Below are positions 1-64,000 of a stretch of 64,000 nt of DNA, piece by piece. Each line of letters starts with the position of its first letter. Positions within the stretch are counted from its first letter, which is position 1. A model generated the notes under the pieces. It was not told the origin of the DNA. It searched no databases and saw nothing but the letters and a program-made list of their open reading frames with translations. This DNA comes from Amoebophrya sp. A120. Taxonomy: Eukaryota; Protista; Dinoflagellata. Position numbers and translations under genes: made by a program. The DNA is taken from contig CAJINV010000003.1 in NCBI GenBank assembly GCA_905178155.1, positions 3,715,600 through 3,779,599 of the forward strand, in the 5' to 3' direction.

Positions 1-152
1 TTTTCTGTCATTCAGAAACGCAGTTTGTCATGCAGAATAGGCAACACCTAGAAGCTCAGAAACTTGTCATGCTGAGCCAGCACTTGTGGCCTCCTCATGA
101 TACGCCACCCAGCATCACAAGTTTCCAGACCCAGACATTTTTGCATTTGATA
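1..152. mobile_element. Introner/MITE family A, copy A1 (partial, cut by window edge)
   Basis: Right TIR TTCCAGACCCAGACATTTTTGCATTTGATA ends at 152. It interrupts the minus-strand frame of ORF 115..486. Left end and TSD lie outside the window. Confidence 0.85.
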
Positions 153-3100
153 ACTGCAGGGGTGCGTTCAAAGCTTCAAAGTTTTCTGAGGAACCCGCGA
201 CGAGGTCCACCACGTCGAGTTTCCAGCGAATCCGTACAAAATCGCAGTATTTCCTCGTGCGCCCCTTTTCGTAGTTCTGCCAGGCACCCACCGGGTAGAA
301 CTTCTCGGTGGGACGAGAGTAGGGCTGAATGCAGGCAAGCGTTATCCCGGTGGCGAGACCGAAGGAAGGCGATTTCTGCTCGTACAGGAAGCGTCCGGGG
401 GAGAGGTCGTGTACTTGGAGCACATAGCTTCCCACGGGACCGCGGACATCATCTCTGGCAAACGGACGCAAGGCAATGACGCGCAACGAGGCCAGGTCGT
501 ATCAAATGTAAAAATGTCTGGGTCTGGAAGAATGCAACTTGTGATGCTGCGTCTGCATTATCCAAAAATCTGTATTGCATGAACAGCAAAAGAGGTCTGA
601 TTTTGGCCACGGCGAGAGGGGATTTCTCATGCGGCATAGGCATCAGAAAGCCCTCACAAGATCTGTGATGGTAGGGCATGCATCGCAGACATCAGGAGTC
701 ATGCAAAATGTGCATGACAAACCTTGCATCCTTCCAGACCCAGACATTTTTGCATTTGATAGGTCGACCGTGTTCGCCAGATTCCGAAGTTGCTTTTCGA
801 GCACACCAGGTTGCTCCTGCTTCTGCTCGTCATCTTCATTTTTACCGATCGCGGGGCTAAATGGACGCCCGTCCTCCACGGAGTTTTCGTCCTCACCCTC
901 ATTTATTCCGGAGCTTGATCCTCCGGGTCGGCGAAGGCCTTGCACCCTGCCAGCGGCATTCGCTGCCCAGTCCGGCAGGAGGTTCAACTTGAAGTGCTTC
1001 AGCCCAACTCGCACAGGAATCTTCAGCACTGGCGGAACACTGCGAATCACGCTGTTCTCGACACTGGGAACCAGTTCGAACCCCGCGGAAACGGAGGCGG
1101 GATTCCTTTTCGTTCGGTCGACTGACGGCTCGAACAGGCGCGCAAGTTGGAACATGCGCGGCTGGTGCAGGGCGGTGAACACGAATTGCGAAAACTCTCT
1201 TGTTGCGCACTTCGCAAGCTTTTCGTCCGGCCCAATCAACAACATCACAAGCGGAAAAAGCTTTGCCGGGACATTCAGAAAGTGCGCCCAGTCCGGGGTC
1301 ACTTGCGCGAGGTTGGTATTTGCTCCCAGTAGAGGACCCTGCCGAATTCTGGTGTTCTGCTGCTTTTTCACGTCGATCGCGCCACGATATACCGCAACGA
1401 GGTACTCCTTGTACAACTGACGCGCGATATCTTCCGCACTGGACTCTTTCATTAATTCAATCTGTTCCGCGGAATGCGCCTTGTGGACCGCCAGCACGCC
1501 CGCGCCGTCTGGAATTCGCGAAGACGATGATGTCTGGCTCAGCCGCCTCGCGGCCGGCCAAAAGTCGGGATCCACTTTGCCCATCTTCGCTTTAGCATCC
1601 TCCAGCCCTTTGTCCAAGCGATTCAAATCCAGGGTTCCTGCTCCGAGGGTGTGAGCAGCGCGGAGCTTTTGCAAACGTTCGGAGCTCTCTGCGGTGATCC
1701 CAGCCGAGTCTCGCAGGGAGGTGAGGTAGGATGTCACTGCTTTGTCCTTGACGCGACGGAGACGGACGGCACGGCCCACCGCACGCAACACCACGGAATG
1801 GTCATTGTCCGAGTCGCATATCCTTCCCGCGGCGGTCAGCTCGGCGACCAGAAACAAACCGGCATCCCAGACTTCGCCCACAGAGGTCGCGTTCCACCAC
1901 GTGTTGGAGATTTGCGCGGAGAACACGTCCGCGAAATTCACAACGGCCTGCCTGTGTAAATCTTGATACATAGCTTGCAAGACGGTTAGGGCGGACCGGA
2001 TGGTCTTTGCCAGCGCGTCCCGGGCGGGGCACCTGTCCCCGTGCACGTTCACGTCGCAGGAAGCTGCAATCGCTTGCAATGATCGCCAGTCCGCGGTCTC
2101 ATGCAACGTCTCGAGAAGAGCTTTCGTGCGCCGGAGCGCTCGCAGCTGGGCTCGAAAATCCCGGTGGAGAAAGAATGTGCCCGGCACATCCACGAGGGCG
2201 TGCGCAGAGAGCAGGCGAACGTTGCGGCAGCTGTAGGCATCCTTCAACCCGTTTCTACCCAAGTCGAAGCACGTCCAGTGTTTCGGCGTGCACGAGAGGT
2301 CGGCCCGGTACTGGCAGAACACCTCGGTTTGTGCATTTTTCACCAAGCCGCAGGAGCCCAATGCTGCTTTGGCTACTGCTTTGGACGGCGAGACGACATC
2401 GTCGGGAACGGTGCACACGGGGAACGACGCAGCGCTCCTAGACGCCCAGTACCGGGCCAGCGACGAAGCGCGCCCGGGACTCGCCGGCCCGAGGGCGTGG
2501 TGGCGGTCGCCTTCGGCGCTGCTCAGCCCAACGCTGACCGGAACACTTTGCCGCCACGACAACGACTGTAGCACTGGCGAGAAGAGGTACGGCAGGGCGA
2601 CGCGGGAAGCTTGCTCCTCGTCCTGACTGGCGGGAAGAACGACGCGCACACCGGTGACGATCATGCCAACAAAATGCAAGTGACAGAGCAGACCATTGGC
2701 GACACGAGGGGAGCTTGTATCTGCCACCTCGTCGAGCGGAGGATTCCACAGCGTGCGCAGCACTAGAGGGCAAATATCGAGCGCCACGTCTCCGCGAGTT
2801 CGCCCCACGTTGGTCAGATCTGTAACCGAGCTGGCGACGGCACGAAGATGATCCTGCTCCGGCTTGGAGATGAAACGAAGCATCCCTGGCAGCTTCCAAG
2901 TAAGCAGCCGATACGCGGCCGGCCCGGCCGCGCAGTTCACAAACGCGAACTGCCGTGCTGCCGCCGCGTTGTTTGGCGGGAAACTCTGGGCGCTCCCGAG
3001 ATCAAGTGCCGCGTCCTGCTGGAACCCGCGCTCCAGCGAGCCGAAATCGTCCACGTACATCAAGGCTCGCGTAATCTGCCACAGCGCATACCTCCGCCGT

Positions 3101-3894: not shown

Positions 3895-4439
3895 GGTCTC
3901 CAAGATTAACTACGCTTCGCAAATTTATTTGATCTTGCACTTTACTGATTTATTGTAAAGCTACAGGTGGACCTCATCATCCGCATTTGCTACGCGAAGT
4001 TCGATCTACAGATACAGTTGTCGTGGTGCCTCGGTCCTTCATCGACAAGCAACAAAAAAAACCGCTCACCTACATCATAGAATTGTTGATTTTCATTTCT
4101 GACATTCTTGCAGCCCTTCTTTTCGAAGATCATACGTGCAATTTTTCACTATACGCATGCAAATGATCCCTTTCGCTCCGATGACACGAATGCCCCCCAA
4201 AACGACGAGATAGACGATTTCAAATGATGCCCCATCAAGTAGACTTCGACACGAATAGTGGACGGACTACTCCTGACCGACAATAGCAAGAGCACGACGC
4301 ACACACTTTTATTCCCCAGCTCATGCTGCATTTTGAAAACAATAATGTGCTCTTCTAGTGGAGCGAGATTTCCGCATCTACAACTCTCTCGCATGACGAT
4401 CAAGCCAAAGAGCACCTGCATGATAAACGCACACGGGGA

Positions 4440-19124: not shown

Positions 19125-22100
19125 CTAAACGATAAAGGAAAGGAATTGCATAAAGCAGCACAAAGCATAGCAATACCGCTTCCCCTTCGTGTGTGGCTCC
19201 GTCCGGTGCTTCCGGTGCGGCTTGAAGCAAATCCACTTCTCGCGGCACGGTCTCAGGATGCACTTCGCGGGTGTCCCGTCCGGTCCCCGTATGGTTTCCA
19301 CAGCGTCCCCCACCATCTGCCCCTCGGTTCCGTACAGGATGACCCTGCCCGCGTTGCAGGTCGGATGCTTCGCGTACTCCAGATCGCAGCCGTAGTCGCC
19401 GAGGCAAACCTATCCTGAAGACAAACGCACCACCCCCAAATTCGGAGAGAACTTGCCATGCTTGATTTCTGCGCACGCGAGCTAGTTTTCCCTGCAGCGG
19501 GGCGACGCAAGCGCTCAGCTTTCCCTCACTGCAGCAGCCAACTTCTTGATGGCGCGCTAATCTGCGCAATAAATGCAAACAGCACGCCACATCTCTGATT
19601 TTTTTGTAGAAACAAAAAAAAGCACTAGCACTGCCAGCGCCACTATATCTGCGCGCACAGGCAACACATACGCAAGCGCCTCCGGTTCTGGGGCGGGGCG
19701 TTTTTTCACTTCCGTAGGAACTGGAAGTTCAAAGTCTGGGGATCGTTGCCCTCGTCGGCATGCCAAGAAGTGACATTATCCAACCCGGTATCATGAGGAA
19801 AGGCCCCACCTCCCCAATCTGCTGCTGCGACCTGTGTCGCAGCGTGCATTCATGTATCTATCCAAGTCATTTTGTGCATTTATGTCGAAAGCTACTCTCC
19901 GCAGTGCAGATGTCGCTGCCGTAGCCGGCAGAGAAAAGGCAAGAGGAATCGCTATACAAGACGCATCAAAGCTATCGGGCCCCCCGATTAAGCCTACTAG
20001 ACAGAGTATGGGGAGGGAGGATTATTCTAGTTCATAGCCAAAGCCGCCCGCACTGAAGTAGATTGCTTCGCCGAGCACTCCCCTAGCGGTCGCGTCCTGC
20101 GCCAACATGCAGCACTGTCGCCACAACTCGCGGACCCACGGGCACTTCAGCTGCTCCTCAAAATCCTCCGCGGGCGTCACCTCCTGCTTGCTGCGCGCCA
20201 GCTCAGCCAGCCCTCCCTTCACGTACCCAAACCGCTTCCAATCCGCATACTGGGAGGAAACGTTCGCCCGGCTGCTCCGCGGCAGGCTTCGCTTCTTCAA
20301 ATGCGCCAGAAGTGTGGCGAAGGTTGGCGTCTCCGGCTGTTCGAAATCTACCACTTCGTAAACCGCCTCTGCGTCGGGTATCAAGGTGAAAACAAGTGCT
20401 GCCCCTACCCCCGAGAACAAAAAAAGTAGTTAGCTCTGTGCAAAAGAAATCCCGCCTTCATGTATTTGTGAACAGAAACACCGCATGACAGACAAATAAC
20501 AGACTGACTTAGAAGGCATCTCTGATAAACGCTCCTGACTGCTGATGTAATTCCCCAACTGAAAGAGCGGAATCGCAAGGATATCCAAAAAGTTTCCCAG
20601 GAGAGGGCCACACTTTTCACCTGCATACTGTACAGCGGTGCCTCTCGGGGGGCTGCCGCCCTTCTGCGCGGGAAGCGGCTGGCTGCGCCGCTGGCGGCGA
20701 CGTCGCGGGTTCTGGCGTCGTAGTGCTGCAGGACCTTGCTCTTCTGCTCCTCCGTCAGTTCGTCCCAGACCTTCTTCTTGAAGTCCGAACAGGACACATT
20801 ATTATTTGTTCCGGCCTATCCACTGCAAATATGTCTGGGTCTGGAAGATTACGAGCCTTGTTGTGCAGGTTCCTCATGACCCATGAAGTCTAGAATGCAG
20901 GACCTAGCGTGACAGGTTATCCCGCATGAGAAAGTCTCTCCGCTTGGTCGAAAGTGGGCAGCTTGTGGCAGTCATGCAACACAGATATTTCCACGGTCCA
21001 GATTTAGCACAACAAGCTGCATGCTTCCAGATCCGGACACTTTTGCACTCGATACCACGACAACCGCCTTTGTCCCGTCCTGAAAAGCACAGCTGCCTTT
21101 GGTGTAGGTTTTGAAGACTTCCATGTGCAGGTAGTACTTGTTCTCCTTAAAGTCCGTAGAGTCGCTGTCGCCCTGCTTCCCACACTGCGCCGATCCTCCC
21201 TGTCCCACCCGCGCTCGCCCTTCGTACACTTTATTTCCGAAGGAGTGCACCATGCAGATTGCGATCCCGTCGTCGTTCCCCCCGAAGTTCTTCCCGTCCT
21301 TGGAGCTCCCCTGCACGATCACGATGTCGCCCTTCTCCAGCCGAAACTCCTGCCAGAAATTCTTCGCCCGCTTCTTCTGGTGGTCCACGGAGTCCTTGTT
21401 CGCCGCGCAGAAGTGCAGCGGAGTCGGCAGCTTCTTCAGCTCCTGCAGCATGCATTCCGCCTGGTGGTCGGATATCCCGTCGCGGTCGAATTTCTTGAAC
21501 AGCACCTCGGGCAATTCGTCCAGCAGTTCGTCTGTGGAGCCATTTGGGTCCGAGATGGGGATAGGGGTCCACCCGACCGCCGATTTGACCCGCTTGCGTC
21601 CTTCGGGGTCAACAACCCAGTCCGCCACTAAAATTGGCTTGGCTGCGTCGTCCGGTGTTTTTTCCCTAAAAGCGACTTCATGACTATGACAGTGCACAAC
21701 TCCCCCTCCCCCTCAGTTGTATAGCATGAACGGCAAAACGAGCATCCGCAAGAATGCCGGTTTTGCATGACAAATTTCCACTGTTCTATTAGGGCTAGCA
21801 GAACTTGCCATTCAAACAGTGCCAAGAGGCACAGCCTGGATTTGGGATTTATAGCATGAACTGCATTACAAGCATCAGCGAGATTGCCCGTTCTGCATGA
21901 CAAATTTCCACTCGAGTGTAGTGCTATCTGGGCTACCAGAACTTGGCATGCAACCAGTGCCAAGAGGCACAGCCTGGAACTGGATTTAAGATTTTGCATA
22001 ACAAATGAGGGGGAGGGGGAGTTGTGCACTCTCGTAATGATTCTTTCGAATCATTCGCACTTTTTCCCAGTCTTCCATCTTTTGCGTAGTTGCTTTTGTC

Positions 22101-25209: not shown

Positions 25210-28200
25210 TCACTTGCAGCAGCACATTTTTCCCTTCTGGTTGGGGTCCTTCAGGTATGCAAGTGCACAACTCCCCCTCCCCCTCGTTTGTATTGGCAAA
25301 ACACCAATGACACATCCTGCCTTTAGGCACTATCTGCATGCCAAATTTTCGCACCTCAAACAGTACTACAATCTGGGCACAGATTTGTCATGCGGAGGCC
25401 ACATATCAGCGGGTGTTTGTGTTGCTGTTCGTGCCATACAAATGAAAGGGAGGGGGAGTTGTGCACTCTCATATGAGGAAGCCCTTGAGTTCCTCCGGGG
25501 TGTACTGCGCACCGCCGCTGCCGCCCTTGGCGTTGAGCTCCTCGTCGGCGACGAAGCACTGCAACGTGGTGTCGACCGCGAGCCCAAACACGTCCATAAA
25601 CAGCTGGGAGACCACGTACCCGATCATGAAGAAGAGCAGCACGCACATAACCGGACTGGAAATGTCGTCCTCGTACATGGCATTCAGCACGAAGTACCCG
25701 ATAATCGTTGTGAAGACCGTGATAAAAATCATCCCGATGGCCCGCACCAGGGAGCCGATCATGGCCAGGATCCCCAGCCGCGCGGCGTTCCGCAGGATCA
25801 GGCAGAACGCGGCCCAGGCGCTGCGGCAGAAGTTCTTCCCCAAAATCGCGATCTGGATGTAGGCGTTTTTGTTCAGAAACTTCACGAACCGCTCGAAGCA
25901 CCGCACCAGGCACTGCAGAAGCGCGGCAATCTTCATCATGATGTAGTTCTTCTGCGCCTGCGCATTCCGCTTCACGTACTCCAGCGCATACTTGATGAAC
26001 TGCACCACAGCGAGAATGAACGCCCCGAAGCACAAAGAGCCTGCATTTGTAGTTTTCAGGCGAAGGATAGTTTCACTGCATCATGCTCGACGTGCGAATC
26101 ATAATTGAAATTTTTAACAATAGAAGGGAAACATTAGGGAAACAAGCAGTGAGACTGACGCGTAGAAAAAAACCGGCCGAGCGTTCATGTCCTTTTCATC
26201 TTGACACATCATTCTTATACCGAAGTGGTATCGGAAGCAGTTTTTGAGGGACGGCAGGACCGCGGCGTTGTAACCTTTGGAGTCGTTGGGGGTGAAATAC
26301 CAGACCGCCACGGCTCCCGCGATGGTGCACTGCCCGAGCGCCACGATCAGAGCGTTGTTCCACAGGAGTGAAAAGAAAACGTAGGCGAACATCGTGTCGA
26401 AGCCGTACCGCGGGGTTGTGCACCGGTAGCACTTGTCCGTGGTGGTGACGGTACCCCCGCTCACAGTGGTCGAGCAAACGCTGTTCGCGACGGGGGTTCG
26501 CGCTCCGGTTGCGTAGTTGAAGGTGTTCGCGACGCCTTCGTCGTAGAAGTAGTCCCCCGTGGGCCACTCATCGTTGCAAGCGCCGGGGGTGTCGGTGCAG
26601 CCGAAGTCCCAAAATTTGCAGTCGTTGGTGCCCGCTGCGCCAACGAGGGTGTAGGGTCCGGACTTGGAGGTGTCGGTGTTGTCGATGCTGGAGAGGACGT
26701 ACAGGGCCACAATCATCCACACCAGAAACCACAGCAGCGCGACCACCGCCTGGATGGGCGGCAGCAGAATGATGGCCTTGGTCTGGTACACGAACTTTGC
26801 GGCGACCTTGTTGACGGCGATCCCCAACTTGATTCGCGTGCACATGCACAGCACGAATAGAAAGTACAGGGCAGCCAGCGCGAGGAAGATGTAGGACATC
26901 ACTTTGTACCTGCAGGTTTGTGAAAATTCTCGAGCAGAACGAAGAGCATGCTGCTCTGTGATTGTCGGTTTCGCTGGAAGACAAGACTGACCCTGTTGAG
27001 CACCAGTGTTCTTGTACTTGTCTATTTTACTTTCCGTTTTCGGATCAAGAAGGTTAAATACGAATCCCGGTCTGCTTCGTCCTTGGTCACGCAATCCTCG
27101 ACGGTGGTCGTGGTGGCGGGAGTGGTCTCGGTTCCGTTGGTAACAACCGCCGCTACATTCATCGTTTTGTCCTCGCAAGACTGCATCGCAAAACCGTAGA
27201 TGCCCGCCCCCAGCAGCAAGCCGAACACGGATCCGATGGCGCCCCAAACGATGTACGCAACGAAGAACCGGAGCAGGATCATGAAGACGAAACCTAGGAG
27301 CCATATGAGTTGTAATTCATTTTGTTACACGACTTCTACAAGGTAAAAACAAGCACCACAAACAAATACAAGTGTACCGGTCGCGTATTAGACTGAACGG
27401 GGCTCATGAAACTGACCTACGAAGCAGTCCGGTGACCTTGTTTATTGCGTTTTCTTCATATCTAACCGACAAGAGTAGGAGCAGAATCTGCTTAAGTAGT
27501 ACCGATGACGAGGGCAAGGATTCCGACTATGACGAAGGCCCAGGCCGCGGTGGAAATGTCTCCGATCATGGTTCCGAAATCGGCGGTGACGTCGCCCATG
27601 GCCGACGATTCCGACATGGAGGAGGCCGCACTCGCAGCCGCGTTGCCCAGTGCCGCGGCGGCCGCAGCGCCCATCTTCATCACGCACATGTTGCCGATCG
27701 CCGAAAATTCCAGCCCGGGGTAGGGCACGCAGTACTGCGGCGCATCGTTGCAGACGGAAAGCGGCAAAGCCTGGTAGCTCAGCATGTCCGCCAACACCGA
27801 GGGCATCGCGTTTTGGGCCCACAATCGCGCAACAATCGGATACCTCATGATTACCACGAGTGGTTGGATTTGGATTTTTATGCACCGGCAGCGCCTTGTT
27901 CTTTGCATGCAGTGAAGTAAGTACGATTATAGGACGGGGTCATTCCTCTCGCGGTCCCTTGGCAGCCACGGACGACCAAGGGAATCATGTCGTGGTGCAG
28001 TGCTTGTCCGAAATCTCTCGCCAAAAATTTTATCTCTAAGAACATGCTACTTTCTTACCAGGAAGTGGTCGGTGCCGGGTGGTACTGGTACGTTCGCGCG
28101 GCTCCGCTCGTCGAATTCGAGCCGACTGCCCCGGCGGTCGCTTTCGCCCCGAGCGCAAACGCGGTCACGGCCTCACAAGAAGTCGCGCAAGAAGCCGTAA

Positions 28201-35875: not shown

Positions 35876-38679
35876 TCATGTTGTTTGCAGCAGCGGGCCA
35901 TTGGTTCTCTCGACCGGGGTAGGGGGCTTTCGAATTTCCGGCCGTCTTTCCGACGTCTTGATCAGGGTTTTGCTCGGACTGTTGTTCACCGCAGACTGTC
36001 CCTTCGACGTGCTTCGGCTTTCCACCGTTATGTCCGAAGCCTGGGAAGCTGTTGTCGACGCGCCATCGTTCCTGCTGGTAGCCATAGCAGGTGGCAGCTT
36101 CCCCCGATCGCTTCCACCTCGATCCGGAGGCACAAAATTTCCGCTCCCCGCCGAACTGCGTGACGCTTTCGCCGCAGCTGGATTTTTGTGTAGTATCTAT
36201 TTGCCATTGCTTATCCGCGGAGCCGCGCTTGTCCCTACTTTTTCCATCAAAAACATTTCGAACCCAGATCCCAATGATGTATCGTGTGTGAAGACTGGAG
36301 AAACAAGCTATTCTAGAAATCTATACCTTGCTTTCCCGCTGGCGTCGGCGGCTGGGACATGCGTTTCGGCCCCGCCGCGCGTTTCCTAGGCCCGGTGGAC
36401 GAGGAACTCGAGGCTGGCGCGCCTTCGTCACCCGTGCCCGCCGCGGCCCACGTACCAATGGCCTGGTTCAGCACGAGCCAGGGGGTGGGCAGGGCGGCCT
36501 TCATCAACGACTCCCGCTCCACGTTCGAGCACCCGATCACCGTGCACACGGCGGGAATCAGGGACTGCGCCTTCATGTCGCCCTTCTGCGCGTACTCGCA
36601 GTACTTGTACACCACCTCGCGCAGGTAGGCCTTGTCCACGTTCGCATCGGACATGATCTCCAGCTCCCGTATCCTCTTCTTCATGCCCACCTGCTCGTCG
36701 TTGTTCTTGCGCATCTTCTGCTCCATCTCCCGCACCTGGAACCGCAGCTTCCGCGTCTCTTCGCCCTGCTCCCGGAGAATCAGGTCGCGGTTGGCCTGTT
36801 GTTGACAAGTGGGTGGGTAGGGATAATTTTTGCTTGTTTTTATTTATGATTTGAACTCCACGACCGGTTGCTCTTTTGCTGTAAAAAGACAAGGATCCAC
36901 GCTCACTGTGTACTATAAAGAATTTCCACTTCTCACAAGATGAACCCGTGCCAATACACTAATTGCGACCACAAACCTGCAATTCTGCGGCCTTGGTGAT
37001 CATGCGGCTTGTGTCGAGCTCCTCTTCCATTTTCGCGATGTCATGCTCCATCTTTGACATTTGTTTCTCTTTTGTGCTCAGCTGCTCGGTATACTGGCGC
37101 TTTTCCTCGGCGTGCTGGCTTTTCACGGACTGTAGCATGCGCTGTCCGAGCTCTAGCTCCGCGCGGTACGATCCCTGTTTTTAAGGTATCCATCGCGAAA
37201 GGTTTAGAATTCATAGCATGCACAAAAAGCATCAATACTGGCAGTTTAAAAACATCTTCGTTCCCGGCACCAGCACATAAGAAGATATTACGCGTGAAAG
37301 TAGATTTTGGCCCCGTGGAAGGTGAGTAAACATACTATAAGTACGTCGATCTGGTCGCACTTCGACGTGAGCGCCAAGTTTTCCTGCTGCAGCTGTTGAA
37401 TCCTCTGCTCGAGGTCGCGCACGCGCCCCTGGTCGACTCCAGAAGCAACTACACCGGGCGCTGCTCCCTGATCCGTCGCACCACCACTGGAGGACGATCC
37501 CGCGCCGCCGGATTGCATTTTGCTCGTCAGCTGCTGCGCTCGGTTGTTGTTCTGCGCCCGAAGGTTTTGGATTTGCAACTGCAAATCCTTGTTTTCCGCC
37601 TTCAGGGACCGGTTCTGGCTCTCCATCGCTTTCACGTTTTGGTTCGTGTTCTGCATGTTCTGCTGTGCTACAATGTTGGCCTCCTGCAACGACCGGTTCT
37701 GGAGTTCCTCCAACATGATCCACTTCGCGCGGAGCTGCGCCTCCAGAGTGGCCGTCTGGTCCGAAAGCATCTGCTCGGCCTCATTGGGAAAGACCAATCG
37801 CACAAAGTCGCGTAACACGTTCAGCTCGCGGTCCTTCCCCTCCAAGGACTCAATCCCCGGCGTAAGCAGCTCGAAATTTATCTGGGATAGAACAACAATA
37901 GTTGTAGGGAACAAGCACAACTTCAAGAACAAAATGATCTTCGGACAGAAGCAGAACGAACACGAAATTTGTCCTGTGCACCAGTCGCAAAATAAAGCAT
38001 TTATGCAACGACCCAGAGAGCAAAACCACAGAGTAGATCCATGATGATCTTGGGCCTCTTAGTACCGGCGTCTCCTGCGCTGCCGCCTCTTCGAACGCAG
38101 TTTCGGGATCCGGCAGCAGCAGTTTGCAAAACCGCAAAAAGCTTGCGCGATCTTCATGCAATATCTTGTTGTATGGATGTGTCAGGATCGAAATCGACAA
38201 AGTCGGAAAATTTGTGACGCATAAAATGCAGGGCACTTGAGGCCTGTATTGGGGAGCAGGCAAATGAGACCGATTGTGAGCCTGTTTAGGGGTATGCAAT
38301 GTGCTGCAAGAGTAGCATGACAGGAGCAGTCTTCTTTGCCCAAACAGCATGACAGGCTGGATTTGGGTGCTGCCGAAATTTGTCATGCGCCACTAACAAA
38401 CTGAGGATCTAACTGGTATCGATTTTATGCATCACAAGTTTTTCGACTTTGTCAATTTCGATTCTGACACTTCCCTATGTTGAAGCGCAGTAGTTTTACG
38501 TACCGGTCCTCGATTTTGTCTAGCTTGGCCTCCACCGTCTTCAGTTCCTTGTCTTTTTTCTTGATCAGCGCAATCAGGGTCTCGCGTGGAACTTGGCTCG
38601 AGGAGCTACTCGACGCAGCACCATCTCCGCTGCCAGTCGTGGCGCTCGGCTGGCTGCTCGAGCCCGCAGCGTCCGACAT
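35876..38679 (-). CDS. GRIP-domain coiled-coil protein (golgin-like); last exon uncertain (stop at 36313 or 35876)
   Basis: Coiled-coil exons joined by GT-AG introns and element G (LRFN-KILHEDR). C-terminal VDKAYLREVVYKY..SLIPAVCTVIGCSNVERESL fits the GRIP pattern. Confidence 0.8.
38172..38477. mobile_element. Introner family G (306 bp)
   Basis: ~56-bp TIRs beginning TATGGATGTGTCAGGATCGAAATCGACAAAGTCG and ending CGACTTTGTCAATTTCGATTCTGACACTTCCCTA. TSD TGTTG. Confidence 0.94.
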
Positions 38680-41874: not shown

Positions 41875-44800
41875 CTAATCCCCTTGGGAGTCGTCAATGT
41901 AGTGCAGCGTGTAGAGAATTATGCAGCGCCAGAGCTTGATGCAAAACTTTTGCGTCTCGTCGTCGAGAAATTTGTCCAGCTCCGCCAGCATGTCGTCGGT
42001 CGTCATTTTTTGCGTCTTCACCTTCTGGACCACCGAGTAAATGTAGTCAATCACAGACGCCTCCTCTTTGTCGTACAGCTCTTTCACCTTCTTCGTGATC
42101 CACGGCTTGACCTGTGAGAATAAAATGAACAGATTACACCAACTGCATTTCGACTTTAGTATAGGAGTGGGACTCATTTCATCTACTTCCTTTCCAAAAA
42201 AAAATGAAGACTACAACAGGTCGGCCGAGCCAATCAAGTCCTCGTCGCTAAAGCAGTGCGCTAAAGTAGTGCGCTAAAGTAGTGCGCTAAAGTAGTGCGC
42301 TAAAGCAGTGCGCTAAAGCAGTGCGCGAAAGTGCGCCAAAGTAGTGCGCTAAAGTAGTGCGCTAAAGCAGCGTGCTAAAGTAGTGCGCTAAAGCAGCGCG
42401 CTAAAGCAGTGCGCTAAAGCAGTGCGCTAAAGCAGTGCGCTAAAGCAGTACTAAAGCCGTGCTACCAGCATGCGAGGCAACCTAGCTGCGAAGCACTCTG
42501 GCTAGCCAGAGCGAAGCACTTTGGCCGCAAGCGTCGAAAGCAATTTATGCGTAAATAGACCTATACCTTTAACTCCAGTAATTCGTTTTTGTCGATGATT
42601 CCCCAATTGATCGGGTAGTCAAAGACTGCGTCGCCCTCGGGAATGGTTTGGATCAAAGCCTGCAGATCTTTCTGCGGGCGCGCCCTCGACGGTTCATCCC
42701 GATCGCCCCGTCTATTGCTGCGCTCCCGGCTGTGCCGTCGCCGTCCCCTCCGATCGCCACTCGGCGACCGCCGCCGGCGCCGCAGGTCGCTTGTGCCCGT
42801 CAACCGTTCGACGGCTTCTCGCGTTTTGCGCTCCTCGTCTGCTTTCAGTCGCTGTTCCAACTCCAGCTGTTCCTTCCGAATCGCTTCCTTCTCCCGCTCG
42901 GCGTTCTCCTGTCGTTCCTTTTCCAGGTCCTCCTCGTCCTCGTCGAGTTCGCGTTTCATGTGCTGCTTCATTCGGGCTTCCAGCCCGGGGAAGGCCCGTC
43001 GCCGCGACCGCCGGGGCCGGGGGGCGCGAGCCAGGTACAGGTCCGTACGAACCTGGTCCTTTGCGAGCAGCTCCGCTCGACGATCCGACATCCGCATGTC
43101 CGCTGTAGTTGATTTTGGGTGTGGTTTTTTCTCATTTCCGGGGCTTGTTGCTTTGTTCAAGTTCATCTTGCTGAATCTAGGCACTCAATAACAATTGTAC
43201 AAAGACGTGTGTCCGCAGTACTTGTAAAGAATCAAGCAGTGATTTATACCGTCAGCTATTCTGGTGACCGTTCCCGAGGACGACTCCGTGACCTGGAGCC
43301 GCTTCAGCTCGTCGCGGAATTCCTGGAGCTTTTCTTGCTCGCGTCTCTCGAAATTTCGAACAGCGGTGTCGTCTTCCCGACGTTGCCGTCGCTCCTCTTC
43401 CGCGATGCGTTCCTCGCGGTCTCGCTCCTGGAAACAGTTGTCGATCAGAAGGGTGAGCAGGAGTACTAGACCCCATTTCTTATTCTAGAGAACACCCGGC
43501 ATGTAGTCTGCTGGGATTGGAAAAGCACAAGCAGCTCACGACAAAAAAATAAAACCACGATCATGTTGATGTCCTGTATACGCATGCAAGGTCTTTTCTT
43601 GCGAAGAAGTATCGGTAGTGTAGTACCTTCCGGTGTGGCCTTCGGTTTTCGGGTTTTTTCACGGGGTCTCGTTCCTCCGGCTCTTTCTCCTTGTCTTTCT
43701 TAGCCGCTTCGTCCCGCTTCCCCTTTGACTCGGCCAGTTCCTTTCTGATGCGGGCCAGGTCGTCCGCTCTCCTCTTCTCGTCCTCCAACTTGCGCTTACG
43801 CTCCTCGAGGGCGCGCTCCTGCTCCTGAATCTTGCGCTCCCGCTCCTTCCGCTGCTCGGGAGTGACCGTCTGCAAAAATTGCTCGTACTCCCGGTCTATC
43901 AACTGCAAATATGTCTGGGTCTGGGAGATTGCGAGATTTGTCATGCTAGTCTGGCATGACTCGAGAATCTGTGTTGCATAGGCACAAAAAGGCCCTCTTG
44001 CCTGTCATGCAAAAACGCAGTTTGCCATGCGGAATACGTAAGACATGGCTGCCAAAGAATTTGTCATGCGTAGCTGCGTATTGCAGTGCGTCTATCATTA
44101 ACTTTTAGCATTACAAGTTTCCAGACCTAGACATTTTTGCATTTGATACGGTCTGCGGCCGCAATATTCTCTAGTAATGCCGTGCGAACCGTGTCCATTT
44201 CGCTCGCCAGCAAAGAGTCCACCTCGTCGTCAGCCATTGGAATCATCTCGATATCTGACCCATCGCTTCCCTCCTGAGTTTGATGTTTTTGGGTAAAGTT
44301 GAGGCTAGTTAGTAGTAAAACACGATAGGGACGGCAATTATCAGCGGTGAACATTCGTTTCCCTGATATCTGGATACTTTACGCCGTAGTACGGGAGTTT
44401 TCGAACAAAACTCTATGAATGAAGCTGAGTTGTACCTCTAGCCCCGAACAACCAAAGCGGATATTTTTCAAAAAAACCTTCTGTACCTTGACCCGGGTCT
44501 TTTGGCAGAGGTTGGGGTTGGCTTCCCGGAATTTTGTGCGCTCCTCCGCTCGGAACTCTTCCAAATCCGCCTGCATCTCGGCGGAGACTTTGAGCATCAA
44601 AGACTGGTTCAAAATTTTCATGGCGGGCAGCCCTTCTTTTTCGACGTCCCCGTTGAGAAAGGTCATCACCGCGTTCACCTCCCGTATGTTGCCGAAGTGG
44701 CAAAACGCGAACTTTGCGGGCACGTTCGTGACCGGGTCGGTCTGCCGGTCCCATTTCACGATCCGGCCGCAGCAGCCGAAGATGGCCCGGAGGGACTCGT

Positions 44801-53100: not shown

Positions 53101-54862
53101 ATCACCCGTTCGGATCGGTCTCGGTGTCATCCATGCATGAATCAATTAAAAGAGTGGTGGTCACAAGAACTACAAAGCGGAACAAATAACTTTGAGTCGA
53201 CTCTCACGGAGGCTGGTTGCGCGTAGGCGACATCATGCCGGGGTTCGAAGCTACTTCTACAACGACACACTGTACAAACAGGTACAAAAACCACCGCGGA
53301 CGGCGAGCCCAAACCCGAAGAGCAGCGCGAGCTTCGCGTCGACGAGCGCGGGGTGATGATGTTTATGCAAAAACCCACGAACGCACCTAATATGATACCG
53401 GGATATCAACTGCAAATGCTGTGTCTGGGTCGGGGAGGCTGCAGAAGTTTGTCGTGCACCTTTTTCATACTTCATCAGCCCGGGAATTTGGGGCTTAGCA
53501 ACACAGAGTCGTGCCAGTTCTTTCTTATGCGTGTCGTGGATACAAATCGTCCTTGAATAAAATCAATAAACTTGACCGAAGGCGGGCATATTTTAATAGT
53601 CACGCAAGACCACGGATGTTTGCGTGAACCAGACAAAGGACAATCAGAAATTGCAACGCTCTGTCAGACTCAGACCCAGACATCATATTTCCAATGCATA
53701 CCCGACCTGGTAGAGCCATATCAATATTTGACTTTTTTCTTCGTATACTGTTACTCGATGTTGACAAATGTATAAAGCTGGTTCTTCATCGAGACCTTGC
53801 ATGTCAAGCCTCCAATGTTTTTGCAGGGCCTTCGCCTATGAATCAGATGCCGGGCGGTGGCATGATGGGGCCCCCCGGGGGCATGCAGCCACACCAAATG
53901 CAGCAACAGCCGATGAACACCAGTCCCTTCGCAGCACCCCAGCAGCAGCCGGGGCATAATATGATGAATCCCCTACTGGGCATGAACATGATGGCGAAGG
54001 GCGGGCCCAATCAGCATCCGCAGATGCAATTGCCACCGCAGATGCAGCCGGGCGGGCCGCAGATGCAGAACAACCCCGCGATGCTGGGGCTGAATCCTTT
54101 GGGAAACAATCCGAACCTGCTCCCGGGCGGGATGCCCGGGGGCGTCCTTCCGCAGCAGGGTGGACTACCGCCCGGAGCGGCAGGCAACAATCCGCTTCTC
54201 CAGATGCTGAACAATTCCGGAGGGGGAAATCAGCAGCCACTGCCGATGATGGGCAATCCCATGATGGCGGGCGGACCGCAGCCGCCAAGCCCAGGCATGC
54301 CGCAGCAGCAGCTCCAGCCGCAAGGACTTCTGCCACTGGGAGCAGGTCCCCAAGGCGCACAGCCCATGATGAACAACATGCAGGGACTGATGCCGATGAA
54401 GGGAAATGCGGCGGCCGCGCAGCCCCCGGGAAGTCCGAATCGCGGGCAGCAACAACATCCCGCGCAACTCATGCCACTACCCCCGCAACAACCCGGCGGG
54501 GGCGGACCCCTGCAGCAGCAGCCGGGTAGTAACACGCTGCAACCGCTTCCCATGAACAACAATAATCCGATTGCCAACTTGCTGCAGCAGGGGCAACAAC
54601 AAGGGCTCCAGCCGCCCCCGGTCCCCCCAACCGGTGGGACCCCGGGTCCGCAGCCCGGCCAAACCCCCGGAGGTACTTAGACTGTTTCTGAGCTTTCTTC
54701 TGAATGACCTGGGTTCTTTGACAACTGTTTGATGGTCTTCTCTTCGCCGCAAAAAATTCTAGAATCAAATATGATTCATTTTCAAGATTCGCGATTCGCA
54801 TCTGTTGTATAATATAAGGTGGAGGTGGACCTCCAAGCGGTGACAACAGGAAGGGCACGTGA
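50169..54862 (+). CDS. Pro/Gln/Gly-rich multi-exon protein with one CCCH zinc finger
   Basis: Low-complexity ORFs 50169..51479 and 53694..54680 plus small GT-AG exons. C-x17-C-x5-C-x3-H at 52545-52631. Last exon ends with TGA at 54860-54862. Start codon uncertain. Confidence 0.7.
53404..53700. mobile_element. Degenerate family-A-related introner, copy A9 (297 bp)
   Basis: TATCAACTGCAAATGCTGTGTCTGGGTC ... GACCCAGACATCATATTTCCAATGCATA. Flanks CGGGA/CCCGA (3 of 5). Removing the element plus 5 bp restores the frame (NMIPG-PG..). Confidence 0.75.
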
Positions 54863-56542: not shown

Positions 56543-59500
56543 ATGAACAATCGAAAGTCCTGGTCGGCGAAATGCGGTGGAGCACTCTGCGAGGCCGTGT
56601 CGTGCGAGATCTTGAAATTGGTGCTGCAGAGTGACCAGCAGCAGCGTGACGCGAGCGCGGCTGCGGGTGTTCCGACGGCGAGCAGCTGTCCCGCGGTCCT
56701 GCGGTGTGTGGTGCGGCACTTTCCGGACTTCGTCTCGACGTGGCTGGGCCGCCCGAATTCCGGCGTGCGGGTCGCAGCCAAGGAGGCGTCAGCGGAAGGA
56801 ATCCAGCACTTCTGCCGGTACGTGTGCACGACGCTGGTGCTGCAGCCCGATGTGCTACTGAATGTCTGGATCTTGCTCCAAAGGTACTGCGCGCAGCGGG
56901 CGCTTTTGCTCTCCTCCGGCGGCGCGAGGAGCCCGGGCGGGGGCGGGACAGCAAAGCCGAGTACTTCGGCGCGGTATCATGGAAAGACCGACAATATTCA
57001 AGGAAAACATCATGATGACCGCACGAATAAAATACCAAACAGCAGTGCTGCTCTCGCCTTGGGGAAAGAGTCCTGGCCACTGCTGCTAATCGCCGCTGTG
57101 ATGAGCGCGCTACCCGCGTACGAGGACCACGGACCCTCGCTGTACGAGTACAGTGTCGCGGTCAAGGAGTGGCCCGGGTTTTCAGAGCACTATGGGTTGC
57201 GTCTGAAGAAAAAAAGCACGAGCACTTGCTCCGCTGGAGCTGCGCCGCCTTCGTTACTTCACAAACAGGACCAAGTACGACGACAACCTCCCGCGTGCTT
57301 TGGGTGCGAGACCGCAGAGGCCGTGTTGGTACGGGTCTTCTTCAACCACCCGGCGCTGTTGCAACGGAAGCTGTTTAGCCGCAAGAACCTGTTGCACGCG
57401 CAACTGCATTTTCTCGAGGTGGTTCAGTATCGCGTGTTCGTTCACCCCGACGTCTGGACGACGCAGTATGAAAAGTTGCTCCAGGTTGTACAGACTGGCG
57501 ACAAAATGCAAAACAAAGACAGCATCGACCTTTTACCTGAGCATGATGACAAGCTGTCGACCTTCTCCGATGAAGATCGCGAAAACGACAACAACTACGA
57601 TGTACGGCTCGCACCTGTTGGGAGTCCTCTGCGCAGGAGCGTGCAGATAAAACCCCCAGAACCCGCGGAATTGCGCGAAACGCGCTTAGAAATGTGGGCA
57701 ACGTCTCGGGAGGATGACAGCAACTGCGTCCTCGGCGTAAACACTTGTGAGGAAAATAGGCACAGAGCGAATGCTGGCTCGGGTCGTTTGCAGACAACGC
57801 GCTGGAGCCACGAGCACGCCGGTAGGGTCTCCGCCGGAACTGCACTCGCGTCGCCGCAGAGCGGATACGACTTGTTGCGGTCAACATCTGGGAATAGAGG
57901 AAGGCGGAGCACAAAACAGGGAGAAATTTTCGCTGACGGCGCCAACGTAGAAGTACCAAACGGATTGATAGCAGGACAACTTTCCCGCCCGGAGGACATG
58001 TTTGTGACTGCTCACGATGTTGAAGACACCGACGTGGTGCCACCAGCGGTTGTTGCAGATCATGACCTACACCAGCAGACAGCAGCACTGTGGAACCGAG
58101 AGAGCTATGAACTGCAAAAGTATCGTACTAGTGTAAATTGCAATACAAATTTCCTTAGCATGAGAAATGGAATTTGTCATGCGGATTTGCCTTGATAAAA
58201 CGATTTGTAATGCAAGACTTGCATCCATACGAGTACGATACTTTTGCAATTGATAGGAGCCGCGGTTTTCTGGATCCCGACATTTTCTCCTCCAGCGGAG
58301 GAGACATCAGCGACGACGACGCTATCGTGAGGAAAAATCCCCCTTCCCCATATCAACAAGGTATATTTTTGGAAATGTGTGATGCTGATTTGTGGTCACA
58401 AACCGTGTCTGTCTTGCAAGAAGGCAACTGCGCAGACAGCCGCCGCATTGTGCAGGCGGTTTGCCATGCTGTTGGGCCTACAGCGCGGAGGTTTATCATG
58501 CTAAGCGCCTAGGCCAAAACCTCTCTACTCACGCTTCGTATGGGCCTGCAAAGCCCTCCAGCAAGACAGCTCGGATTTGTGTACAGAAGTCCAGCATCAG
58601 AAGTTTTGTTTTGATATGGGGAGGGGGGATTTTTCCTCACAATAGACGCGAATGGCTGTTTGGCAGGTCCTCCCATTCACAACCAGCGTCCCGCATCTCC
58701 AGTGTCTTCGCGGTGTCGTCGTCGCGCGTCAGCTACGTCGAGGGCGGGTGTCGGGGCGGCGGGCCGCCTTTCGAGTGGTTTGAGAAAAGTCAAGAGTACG
58801 ACCAGCGGAGCAGGTGGACGAGGGCTCATCAAACCGTCTCCCAGTTCGCCATCGCAGAAAATACTTGTGCCGGAGCAAGATCGCGGCTCAACATTGCTGG
58901 GCCCCCTTGCAGGAGCTGCGCGTCTGTCTAGCGGGATGAAAACAACTTCTGGGGTATTGTGAGGAAAAATCCCCCCTCCCCATATTCAGAACGTAGCCTT
59001 CTGAAAATTTGTGATGCAGATTTGTGATCCCAAATCCTCTTTGTCTTGCAAGGATGCAAATCCAGAGAGTCCGCCGCGTTGTAGAGGCGATTTGTAATGC
59101 TGTAAGACCTACGGGGCAGTTGTCTGCCATGCTAAGCGCCTACACCAGAAGACCCCTACCCAGGCTTAGCATCTTCGTGCAGTGTTCTACTGCAAGACAG
59201 ATCCAATTTGTGTACACAAATCCCGCACCACAGATTTTCGTTTCGATATGGGGAGGGGGGATTTTTGATGTTGATATGGGGCGAGAAACACTCATCGGAG
59301 TTCCACCACCGCCCTCGCGATCGAGAGCAACAACTTGAATCTATCCTGTGTAAAAACGTCCCCACACCAGAGTCAAGATGGGGATTTTGCAACACAAACC
59401 TGGAAGTTTTGGGACTCATGCATCACAAGTTCCAGTCCGTAGTGTAGTGCAGGTCAGCAATGGCAAACGCATCAGAAATCCATCTGCTTATCCTGGTTAC

Positions 59501-60329
59501 AGCATTACAAATGCCAAAACACGACTACAAATTCCTCTCATGGGGATGCCCATTACAAATGTTCCTGTCATTGCAAATCTGCATGACAACTCTGGGGTGG
59601 GGACGTTTTTACAAATGATAGAATCGGGTCAGCGACCAAGTTCCCAGCCTTCCCAGTGCCTCGCGCTTCTTTCGGCGGAGTCGGAGCGACCACAACTGCA
59701 GTTACAACAGCGCCGCGTCCTTGCAGCTGGCGCGGCAGCGCAGCGGAAAAGTGCATCCGCTGCTCGCGGCCAAGGAGGGCAGCCGCGAGATGTCCCAACG
59801 CAGTCTGGTGTCTTTGTGGCGCGAGAAAGCCTCCATGCCCATGTTTGTAAACGAGGACCCCGCGGAGGAGCCGGAAGGTGTGCTGTCGCAGCAGCGACTC
59901 CAGCAAATCCGGCAATCGCTAGAGGACCTGGACCGCGCGCTCGGCCGCAAGAATTCCCATTCCGTGGACGAAATGAGCGTTCGGCAGAGTGAGGAACTCT
60001 CTCGGCGGCTGTTCGAAAACAGTTGCGCGACCGGCGGTGGCGGGGCTTGCATTACTACATCAAAGGGAACCAAGACAAATCATACCACACTCGCGGAGTG
60101 CCGCACCACCGCCGGCACGATGAGCTACCGGGCCAGTTTGTTGGCAAATAGTACGACTTCCGAAAGTTGTAGTAGTACTCTGCGGGAATCAACAGCGCTG
60201 CCGATGTTCTTTTCGGCAAACAACAACTTCATAGCATCTCGGAGCGCGTCGAATTTCATGCTGGTCGGATCGAAGGTCTCATTGGGTACCGAAAACGCAG
60301 ACCCTGAGACGGACGAAACGGAGCACTAG
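56543..60329 (+). CDS. Divergent cyclin-box protein (cyclin Y/P/Pho80-like N-terminal half, disordered C-terminus), ~897 aa after removing four introners
   Basis: IQHFCRYVCTTLVLQPDVLLNVWILLQRY..WPLLLIAAVMSA..NLLHAQLHFLEVVQYRVFVHP resembles a cyclin N domain. ORFs 56543, 58174, 58660 and 59721 join into one frame (3787-1093=2694 nt). Confidence 0.7.
58106..58255. mobile_element. Introner family E (150 bp)
   Basis: TATGAACTGCAAAAGTATCGTACT / AGTACGATACTTTTGCAATTGATA. TSD AGAGC/GGAGC (4 of 5). Confidence 0.9.
58323..58644. mobile_element. Introner family D, copy D2 (322 bp)
   Basis: TATCGTGAGGAAAAATCCCCCTTCCCCATATCAA / TTGATATGGGGAGGGGGGATTTTTCCTCACAATA. TSD GACGC. Confidence 0.95.
58955..59276. 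mobile_element. Introner family D, copy D3 (322 bp)
   Basis: TATTGTGAGGAAAAATCCCCCCTCCCCATAT / ATATGGGGAGGGGGGATTTTTGATGTTGATA. TSD TGGGG. Confidence 0.94.
59342..59620. mobile_element. Introner family F, copy F2 (279 bp)
   Basis: TATCCTGTGTAAAAACGTCCCCACACCAGAGT / ACTCTGGGGTGGGGACGTTTTTACAAATGATA. TSD GAATC. Confidence 0.95.
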
Positions 60330-61397: not shown

Positions 61398-62093
61398 ATG
61401 TTGCCTTCGAACCTCCTGCAGACGGCCTTGAACCACCAGGTCATGCTGGAGTTGAAGTCAGGGGAAACCTATTCGGGACTACTCGTAAAAGTGGACAACT
61501 TCATGAACGCACAGGTACTACGTTTTTGGGTGCGTTGCCTTCTTTTTTTCCTTGGAAGTAGAAGAAACCACGAGGACCCGTAAAGAAACTAGTTGAGGAC
61601 GAGTCCCTTCCTGCTGTACGGGTTATAATTTCATCGGATGTTCGACAATATTTCTTTGTTTATTTTTCCATTTTCATTTTGATTTTCTACAGGTCAGAGA
61701 CGCAATATGCGTGGATGCGCACACGGAAAAATTCTGCAGAGTAGCGGACGTCTACATAAGAGGCAACAGCATAAAGTACCTGCGATTACCGGAGGAAGTT
61801 GCCGATATGGTATAGTTGTTGGTTTACTGTTTTTGTTATCGGCTATAATCCGAAGGATTGTCGTCCTACTTGATCGCGATATTTTGAAATTTACTTTTCG
61901 TGGCCATCTACGAACTGTCTAATTACAGGTAAAGCCCGAGGATGCCCCCGTTAAGGGCGCGGCACACATGGGCAAGAAAGGAAAAGGCAAGAAGAAGGGC
62001 GAAGCAGCAGGTCCACAAGGGAGAGGGAGGCCTGCAGAGCGATCTGAGAGACCAAAGGAAGGACGACCCGCAAAGAAACAAAAACAAGGCTGA
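61398..62093 (+). CDS. LSM4: U6 snRNA-associated Sm-like protein LSm4 (exons 61398-61514, 61693-61809, 61929-62093; 132 aa)
   Basis: MLPSNLLQTALNHQVMLELKSGETYSGLLVKVDNFMN..VYIRGNSIKYLRLPEEV, a basic tail, and two GT-AG introns. Confidence 0.88.
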
Positions 62094-62435
62094 TGATACC
62101 CTTTTGTCACAGACGGATACTAGTAATCAAATCCGTTTTTTTTCACCCGCACACGTGAAGATGAGTAAAAATGTAAAAGCGAAACAGAAATAAAAACGCA
62201 CTCGAGCTGCAAAGTGGCTGTCCCATAACAGCTCCTACCGGAAGCTGCTTCGGTTGATCCGTGATGGTGTTCAGCTTCTCCGTAGTTTTGTTTTAGTTGT
62301 CCGTCGTGAATTTACGACGAAGACAAACCGCGCCATCTCAAGTACAAATGTTGTCTGTACCAGATATCGAGCTCGTCACAATGTGGAGCCCTCGTATGTA
62401 GAGGCGATTTTGTTTTGATCTTCGATCGAGGAATC

Positions 62436-64000
62436 ATGTCAACTATTCCGGGAGACGGACGGCAGCATCAGCATGATCTTGCAGGCGACCCTCCAACTCA
62501 CATCTCTGCTTTCAGCCTGGTTGTGCTGTTCGCGCTGTGGGTGTTTGCGCACGCATGGGGTTGCTTATTCCGTTACGTGATGAAGACACCCCCACTGCTG
62601 GGCTACCTCCTGGGGGGTATTTGTTTCCGCAACGTGGGCGGTGCCGCACTGCATTTCGCACAGGCGAAGGTGAGGCAGTCACTAATACATGACAACAGCA
62701 GGACAACGACCAAACCTGGCGGCCCCCCAGCGGCCGGAGATGCGGAACAAGCGAGCCAAAACCTCACTTTGATTCCCGCAGATATTTCGTCCCTCGTGCG
62801 CACGCTCGGGCTCGCCACTATTCTCATGATTGCGGGATGCGAGATCGACTACCAGAAAATCCGGCGGATGGGCGGCATGTGTCTGCGGCTGACCGTGCTT
62901 CCCGGCGTGAGCGAGGCCTTTGCCGTGGCTCTCGTATCCATGTATGTGTTTGGGTTTTCCCTCGCCTGGGGCCTCGTGCTGGGCTTTATCCTGGGCGCCG
63001 TGTCCCCTGCCGTGGTGTGCGGCGGTATGTTTGCGCTGCAAAAGCGCGGGTACGGTGTCGCGAAGGCGATTCCCTCTCTGGTCGTGTGCGCCGTATCAAA
63101 TGCAAAAATTTCTGGGTCTGGAAGATTGCGAGATTTGTTATGCTGATCTGGCATGGCTCTTGAATCTGTATTGCGTGGCCACAAACAACCTCTCTCGCCT
63201 GTCATGCAAAAACGCAGTTTCTCATGCGGAATACGCAGCACCGAAGCACGAAGCAACTTGTCATGCTTGGCGGCGCATTACAGTGCATTTGTATATTGAC
63301 TGACTTGCATCACAAGTTTCCAGACCCAGACATTTTTGCATTTCATACGCCGCGAGCTTGGACGACGTGGTTGCCATTTATCAAATGCAAAAATGTCTGG
63401 GTCTGCAAGAATGCAACTTGTGATGCTGCATTTGGATGTCTAAAAGATTTGTGTTGCATGAGCAGCAAAAGGAGTCTCACTTTTGCTACGCGGACAGGGC
63501 ATTTGTCATGCGGAATAGGCATCAAGAATCCCTGAAAAAACCTGTGATGCTAGGGCATGCATCACAGACATCATGGCTCATGCAAACCGTGCGTGGCATG
63601 TCTCAAAGTCAAAACCCTCCAGACCCAGACATTTTTGCATTTTATACCATTTCCGGGTTCACCACCTCGCTCGGCGTCGCCATGAGTGACATCATGCCCG
63701 CGGACGAGAGAAACCTTTTGCGGACCCTGCTGGGGCTGCCGCACGTACCTGCGCATCCCAGTTCGCACTTCTACGCGATGCTGCACGGGCCAACCAATTT
63801 GCTGCTCGGCGCGGTGCTGGGCGTCACTTTAGGTGCGGCGTTCGCGAAGCTTTGCCAAACGGACGCAGCGACGGCATCTTCATCATCATCCCGAGGGGGT
63901 CATGCAACCTCTAGTTCAACTAGCTCCTTTTGGGGTAGCGGTTCTTTCTTCGGCCGCAAGCTCCTGGCTGCCCACGCGCTCGCCCGCCGAAACGAACTGC
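62436..64000 (+). CDS. Na+/H+ antiporter, SLC9B/NHA-type (partial, runs off the window)
   Basis: PPLLGYLLGG, RLTVLPGVSEA, LGFILGAVSPAVV and GYGVAKAIPSLV. The conserved AASLDDVVAISGF motif appears only after removing elements A7 and A8. Confidence 0.9.
63094..63347. mobile_element. Introner family A, copy A7 (254 bp)
   Basis: Family A TIRs. TSD CGCCG at 63089-63093 and 63348-63352. Confidence 0.95.
63379..63646. mobile_element. Introner family A, copy A8 (268 bp)
   Basis: Family A TIRs. TSD CCATT at 63374-63378 and 63647-63651. Confidence 0.95.

Follow-up and report, generated by a model that had tools for sequence, protein, structure and literature searches.

The removal register and strand-dependent ends of introner elements in a 64,000-nucleotide stretch of the Amoebophrya sp. 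A120 genome

Introner elements were described in the dinoflagellate Amoebophrya sp. A120 by Farhat et al. (2021; PMC7789003), whose text, as far as it was available to us, gives 29,850 copies with inverted repeats that read TAT, seven looser letters and a run of A, direct repeats of 3-5 nucleotides (nt; a 5-bp example stands in the legend of Fig. S19), hairpins, and introner and GT-AG introns mixed within one gene. In the legend of its Fig. 3 the position of the splice sites with respect to the hairpin is said to vary and the border to be unknown, and Table S4 derives from HISAT2 placements, which possibly favour such motifs. The same source reports most spliceosome proteins together with U2, U4, U5 and U6 in A120 and states that U1 small nuclear RNA (snRNA) was not detected; a further paper, likewise available in part (PMC12130899), reports an integrase-like family flanked by terminal inverted repeats (TIRs) in A120. 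The mechanism that removes roughly two thirds of the A120 introns without GT-AG had been left open, in the published accounts as in a preliminary description made from the letters of the stretch studied here. This stretch, hereafter the window, comprises 64,000 nt (assembly GCA_905178155.1, contig CAJINV010000003.1, positions 3,715,600 to 3,779,599 of the forward strand), and our subject is the way in which the element introns within it are removed.

Scanning the window for TA...TA inverted repeats recovered 18 complete elements and a partial copy at 1-152, all at the places implied by the preliminary description, against which the names A1-A9 and so on were matched. That description had included all 18 complete copies and missed three older ones, H3 (19411-19716), H2 (19789-20036) and H1 (20379-20627), which bring the number considered here to 21. 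Because A120 proteins match two exons of the window at 100% identity and the termini fit the published TAT-N7-AAA motif, the elements are the published A120 introner elements, a class known since 2021. With that class they have in common the organism, the end motif, the direct repeats, the hairpin, the mixing with GT-AG introns and the occurrence as repeated families missing from transcripts. The preliminary description had assigned the elements to the introners reported in Amoebophrya; that they are of this type and are missing from mature transcripts without need of GT-AG borders is borne out here by annotated proteins and by a contig that skips element B2. The element class is known; the removal rule is new.

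Register of element removal

Two annotated A120 proteins, P0001 (687 amino acids) and P0006, were mapped onto the window with 686 of 687 and 862 of 865 residues placed, which yielded 16 introns, half of them ordinary GT-AG introns and half element introns. The gene models were derived by their authors from transcript alignments. The gene of P0001 (18944-22682, minus strand) holds five element introns (B1, A3, H1, H2 and H3) and two GT-AG introns, and that of P0006 (25210-29607, minus strand, ends derived by hand) holds the element introns C, A4 and B2 and six GT-AG introns; the choline-transporter-like identity assigned earlier to the latter agrees with its Pfam family, PF04515. At all 8 element junctions of the two proteins the sequence lost is the element plus 5 nt, the very loss that the preliminary description had proposed to look for, and B2 is lost in the same way in an RNA-type contig. 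Five of the 18 elements of that description (A3, B1, B2, A4 and C) are thereby confirmed by annotated proteins. The junction of C (29341-29593, minus strand) was taken from the protein N-terminus, where loss of the element plus 5 nt gives the annotated MSEDEK.

By the 4|5 register we mean that the stretch removed begins with the single nt preceding the element and ends with the fourth nt following it. It had been suggested that mismatched target-site duplications (TSDs) would locate the cut, and 4|5 is indeed the only register that fits all 8 junctions. The protein at H1 (minus strand, TSD matching at 1 of 5 positions, intron 20628..20375, 254 nt, GT..CG) permits this register and no other, so that 4|5 holds even where the direct repeat has decayed to 1/5. 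At H3 (minus strand, TSD 2/5, annotated intron of 311 nt, CT..TT under 4|5) a cut after TSD position 5 is excluded, whereas A3 (20817-21054, minus strand, TSD 2/5, annotated intron of 243 nt) is compatible with 3|4, 4|5 or 5, and the RNA-type contig across B2 (25256-25473, minus strand, TSD 4/5) with 4|5 or 5. The annotated intron at H2 (minus strand, TSD 2/5) measures 253 nt, and at B1 (21685-22036, minus strand, TSD 4/5, 5' end TAC) the upstream repeat copy is kept in the product; like H1, H3 and A3, the intron at H2 equals the element plus 5 nt. From these cases we infer one register common to all junctions. The termini of H1-H3 were placed independently by an end-motif scan, which gave 9 candidate pairs against 1-4 in five shuffles. 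By the same score 23379-23639 is a weak candidate for a further old element, inside the shuffle background.

The register does not follow GT-AG letters. Under 4|5, GT starts occur in 7 and AG ends in 2 of the 21 elements, and both together only at A4 (29018-29285, minus strand), where GT..AG arises by chance; as a set, the elements do not carry the GT...AG of U2-type introns. Exactly six elements (A2, B2, F1, G, A9 and A8) offer neither GT nor AG, as had been noted before. The further statement that only A4 can be cut as an exact GT-AG intron does not hold, since A3 also has such an option under loss of the element plus 5 nt. Neither this nor the flanking-G option previously proposed for A3 appears in the annotated protein, which reads VVVGT and not VVAGT or VVVAGT; two perfect GT-AG options thus go unused, and the cryptic GT-AG use that the preliminary description had named as damaging to its own view is not seen there. 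At B1, A3, C and H3 an AG directly 3' of the element is likewise passed over. In several of the ordinary introns between 19052 and 28927 the following exon opens with the same letters as the donor, which gives 4-7 protein-equivalent registers; these might be very old insertions.

RNA support comes from one contig set, run X3, whose RNA type was assigned by guess and in which an ordinary GT-AG intron is skipped as well. The junctions come from 8 contig pieces, and the comparison extended over the window as far as its right-hand third, where A6, A9, E, D2, D3, F2, A7 and A8 lie. One X3 contig lacks 25251-25473, that is, B2 and exactly 5 nt, and at the mismatched position 4 it carries the letter of the upstream repeat copy. 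A second RNA-type piece (21055-21679) is compatible with loss of the element plus 5 nt at B1 and, by reading of its coordinates, rules out the exact GT-AG register at A3. In the DNA-type run X1, which may be the source of the window itself, the 8 longest pieces match the window exactly and unique flanks continue into the element ends; the joins at these ends have a depth of 22-26, equal to that of unique DNA (15 of 494 joints listed). In this one DNA-type run, then, the elements are present in the transcribed DNA. The proteins joined across the junctions are conserved in relatives, with KPLEKGGENDCSNGPV and ELKGFLKDPN found in A25 proteins. In another record, the unnamed predicted protein P0003 has a C-terminus that reads into a family-A element, an annotation error caused by such elements.

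End constraints on the transcribed strand

A larger sample of elements was obtained from related loci. The 30-nt end motif matches at least 136 loci (L001-L136) in a metagenome-collection assembly, and among the matches listed none overlaps the window. As one exon of these loci is 94% identical to an A120 protein, they represent a close relative and not the same sequence; they carry the same element families, in copies at most 95% identical to those of the window. A finder blind to the flanks, which used TIR pairing alone, returned 243 unique elements (17 in the window, 226 in the related loci). An exact 5-nt repeat flanks 194 of the 243, and exact repeats of 3, 4, 6, 7 or 8 nt flank no more than one each, so the TSD is real and fixed in length. 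Among the 18 complete window elements the tally given earlier was reproduced, with a perfect TSD in 13, 4 of 5 positions matching in 3 (at 21685, 25256 and 58106) and decay in 2 (2/5 at 20817, 3/5 at 53404). Clustering with the related loci likewise gave seven families, the number previously proposed, with A9 as a singleton. Across 442 ends, T stands at position 3 in 438 and A at positions 11, 12 and 13 in 398, 421 and 423; the finder behind this consensus presupposed TA at positions 1-2, and one that ignored positions 1-3 still gave TAT/ATA in 195 of 209.

The elements are of the miniature inverted-repeat transposable element (MITE) type, that is, non-autonomous TIR DNA transposons, with TIRs, a TSD of fixed length, short size and apparently no coding capacity: in six long copies the longest stop-free frame has 118 codons. 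Both orientations were seen for five of six probes, the sixth matching a single copy. The TIR pattern had no match in viral contigs, and Rfam none in window positions 1-43000. Predicted end-to-end hairpins are strong in most of the 21 elements (z from -1.3 to -13.0, against 12 shuffles per element and 3 for F1); at the ends of H3 the predicted pair probability stays below 0.4 over the first 20 positions. Among the related loci, L013 holds TA-bounded tandem units of about 104 nt at 2243-2483, unlike the main families, and L002 holds an element at 2123-2341 with three extra bases between its end and the TSD. The latter was considered as a test of the register and rejected, as it sits in a probable ordinary intron, where precision is irrelevant.

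To orient elements relative to their host genes we used a codon model trained only on window exons. In the window, the earlier claim that loss of the element plus 5 nt restores the frame stood insofar as the best-scoring strand has an open frame in 18 of 18 cases, and was weak at D1 and A9 (margins 2.2 and 3.3). Of 288 unique elements, 217 were oriented at a score margin of at least 4 and 211 had usable ends, 71 being excluded for a weak strand call or closed frame and 6 for poor repeats. Element position 1 is changed at none of the sense 5' ends and at 6 of the sense 3' ends (n=211), and position 3 at 8 sense 5' ends and no sense 3' end; at a margin of 8 (n=168) the counts are 0 against 5 and 6 against 0. 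The difference is significant (Fisher p=0.0003, or p=0.002 excluding the three window cases that prompted the idea). In intron numbering, +2 U and -7 A are fixed, and +4 and -5 are free: all 211 oriented elements have T at +2 and A at -7, and +3 is A in 210 and G in 1. Where position 2 is changed, a purine is kept at +3 and a pyrimidine after the -7 A (one case each). From position 4 inward both ends are alike in composition; only the tips differ. A strand mutation bias does not explain both effects, because they run in opposite mutational directions, and pairing does not explain the asymmetry, because the tolerated 5' change breaks base pairing. Neither a transposase acting on symmetric DNA ends nor simple pairing would depend on the host strand. 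The asymmetry looks like that of a spliceosomal donor and branch point, and not like repeat guidance or DNA excision.

The TSD letters carry no comparable signal. G stands at TSD position 5, the first base of the intron, in 44 of 174, no more than its share among the letters of the flanks (764 of 2436); AG at TSD positions 3-4 (15 of 174) shows no excess over the flanks, AGG occurs in 4 of 174, and G at intron +5 shows no orientation preference (35 of 74). Mismatches in 4/5 TSDs fall at sense positions 1 to 5 in 11, 2, 5, 7 and 3 cases (n=28), an excess at position 1 that is not significant allowing for five positions. In the one, weak case of a position-5 mismatch in L002, the residue expected under 4|5 is the one present in the A120 orthologue (exon identity 94%); for L028 the nearest A120 protein is 52% identical and does not contain the junction. 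Under the 4|5 cut, codon phases 0, 1 and 2 are represented 79:50:44 (n=173), where the TSD letters alone would lead one to expect about 61:57:55. An excess of phase 0 is usual in spliceosomal introns, and the observed bias resembles it.

Candidate mechanisms of removal

We consider it probable, though well short of certain, that a relaxed major spliceosome removes the elements, with the element ends serving as donor and predicted branch point. In this mechanism the N-U-A-U/C 5' end would be read as an ordinary GUA(Y) donor with any first base; since the ordinary introns mapped here start with GTA in 8 of 8 cases, N-TAT is the local donor minus its G. The invariant A at -7, the third letter from the 3' end of the element, would be the candidate branch nucleotide, and the 3' cut would be placed by its distance from this A and not by AG. 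An adjoining AG would never be used because it lies only 3 nt past the -7 A and is presumably too close. The inverted repeat would draw the ends together and may replace U1. As both ends read TAT, an element would be functional in either orientation, and as 4+1=5, the cut removes one TSD copy at any insertion site. A short fixed geometry has a parallel in another alveolate, Stentor, whose 15-nt introns have a putative branch A at the 10th base (PMC9505925, in the part available to us). The preliminary description had instead postulated a second removal pathway, guided by hairpin and direct repeat. A separate pathway is possible, but the resemblance of the conserved positions to a spliceosomal donor and branch point makes it unnecessary.

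Several points weigh against removal by the spliceosome. No lariat or branch read was observed in the raw-read runs X10 and X11, which contributed 4 and 8 reads and are of a different strain. A occurs at -7 in only 2 of the 8 ordinary introns, from which it follows that the organism does not in general keep to one branch distance. In known spliceosomes G+1 and the 3' AG are directly contacted, and the loss of both would be a large step. The same base-specific asymmetry could be produced by a protein endonuclease. The register rests largely on published gene models rather than inspected reads, and the asymmetry on 14 events whose strands come from our own codon model; a previous version of this model, self-trained, placed L018 on the wrong strand, L039_2243 has neighbours called on the strand opposite to its own, and L123, dropped at a margin of 0.5, would break the +2 rule if its call is right.

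The strongest competitor, which we nevertheless regard as doubtful, is a non-spliceosomal RNA cut-and-join enzyme (an endonuclease with a ligase, or a tamed transposase) that reads the paired TAT/AAAA ends and makes its two cuts at set distances from the stem, 1 nt ahead of it and 4 nt beyond it, so that the intron leaves as a line or a circle, a mode proposed for the nonconventional introns of euglenids. It would account for the strong hairpins predicted in most elements, for the geometry fixed relative to the stem and for G+1 and AG being neither needed nor enriched, and it could draw on two published observations, as far as the sources were available to us: U1 was not detected in A120 (PMC7789003) but is present in an Amoebophrya with canonical introns (PMC12005148), and euglenid TIR introns are excised as circles (PMC11282704). 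Yet H3 keeps to the register despite ends for which no pairing is predicted, the letters constrained by strand are those that a spliceosome would need, and no such enzyme was found, none having been searched for. We are equally hesitant about its wider form, in which a second, sequence-blind machine that recognises U at +2, A at -7 and a paired stem and applies a 1-and-4 ruler would remove tens of thousands of nuclear introns. Guidance by the direct repeat, with the two TSD copies aligned and the cut placed anywhere within them, was part of the pathway postulated earlier and fits the perfect 5-nt repeat in 194 of 243 elements and the constant loss of the element plus 5 nt. It is now very improbable, as H1 (1/5) and H2, H3 and A3 (2/5) are cut in the same register without a usable repeat and the intact repeats are explained by young insertions; H1 largely refutes it, provided that its gene model is right.

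Precise excision from DNA at some life stage, in the manner of the internal eliminated sequences of ciliates, had also been put forward and would agree with the TA termini and with an origin from transposons; 4|5 might conceivably result, on the template strand, from a staggered cut of symmetric form, and the DNA evidence is one DNA-type run. However, the X1 pieces join unique flanks to element ends at the single-copy depth given above, the end constraints follow the transcribed strand, H1 would need the ligation of mismatched overhangs, and no separate germline is known in this organism, which makes this excision highly unlikely. Slighter still is the chance of an artefact of complementary DNA (cDNA) synthesis, in which reverse transcriptase jumps the hairpin from one direct repeat to the other while the elements in fact remain in the transcripts. 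A hairpin with a direct repeat is a known recipe for such jumps, and all RNA evidence is cDNA-derived; but relatives such as A25 share the protein sequence that spans the junctions, as noted above, H1 has no repeat to jump between, and selection that acts on the ends by strand implies a role in the living cell.

The fixed register and a named candidate branch nucleotide make the mechanism directly testable. Removal by a relaxed spliceosome, if true, would mean a natural spliceosome that dispenses with both G+1 and the 3' AG and, it seems, with U1, and would explain the invasion of exons at any site and in either orientation at little cost. Were the excised introns circular or linear, they would point to a second nuclear splicing pathway, and if that machine were sequence-blind, any insertion would be harmless in either orientation. 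The 4|5 rule also offers a means of correcting A120 gene models.

Further elements of the window and comparison with other intron systems

The remaining elements have their removal predicted from the DNA. On the left, the partial family-A copy A1 (1-152, no strand assigned) consists of a right end only and continues beyond the window, and A2 (500-761, minus strand, perfect TSD, predicted intron CT..AC) lies in a 1046-codon open frame. Between 4437 and 7633 an intergenic 96-nt repeat array forms two blocks with inverted motifs interspersed. Right of the P0006 gene follow, all on the minus strand, A5 (31777-32038, perfect TSD, predicted AT..AC), F1 (32098-33004), D1 (34892-35212, perfect TSD, weak host strand call), G (38172-38477, perfect TSD, sense 5' end TAG) and A6 (43897-44148, perfect TSD with flanking Gs). 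F1 is 907 nt long and its longest internal stop-free frame has 101 codons; its middle part of about 450 nt (32300-32750) matches no other element or locus compared. A tandem array with a 13-nt unit lies at 42220-42484.

On the plus strand are A9 (53404-53700, TSD 3/5, weak host strand call) and four elements that jointly interrupt one 912-codon open frame: E (58106-58255, TSD 4/5) and, with perfect TSDs, D2 (58323-58644), D3 (58955-59276) and F2 (59342-59620). A7 (63094-63347) and A8 (63379-63646), also with perfect TSDs, enclose a 26-nt exon inside the stretch AASLDDVVAISGF, a string that had been named before and is present by translation. The gene with this stretch is putatively an NHA, as the preliminary description has it.

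Compared with Farhat et al. (PMC7789003), the fixed 4|5 register, its independence of the repeat and the strand-asymmetric +2 U and -7 A are not in the text of that paper as available to us. In a literature coverage that was incomplete we found no paper giving the 4|5 register or a branch candidate, and the figures S19-S25 of Farhat et al. may show part of it; PMC13149111 mentions none of the intron systems considered here. The tunicate Fritillaria borealis likewise has introns with TIRs and TSDs and without GT-AG, whose removal the parts of PMC11282704 and PMC13326754 available to us ascribe to a U2-type spliceosome that is conserved. These introns most often end in AG-AC or AG-AT, and the tunicate has kept U1; in A120, by contrast, no U1 was detected, and any letter may stand at the first intron position and at the last four. 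Euglenid nonconventional introns also have TIRs that pair end to end, TSD-like junction repeats, no GT-AG and an open mechanism (PMC11282704, in part), but in them CAG at +4 to +6 pairs with CTG at -8 to -6 and the excised RNA is circular. The window elements end in N-TAT and ATA-NNNN instead of this CAG/CTG pair. The introners of Micromonas and Aureococcus, as described in the accounts partly available to us, are likewise MITE-like and their removal erases one TSD copy, but they carry a GT or GC donor and take the AG from the TSD; no canonical site is co-opted in this way here, the window-type TSDs showing no enrichment of AG or G. The internal eliminated sequences of ciliates are TA-bounded, transposon-derived and removed with precise restoration of the frame, the cut being made in DNA and leaving one TA. 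In contrast to these, the A120 elements lose both TAs, their 5-nt repeat lies outside the element, and the DNA-type run examined keeps them.

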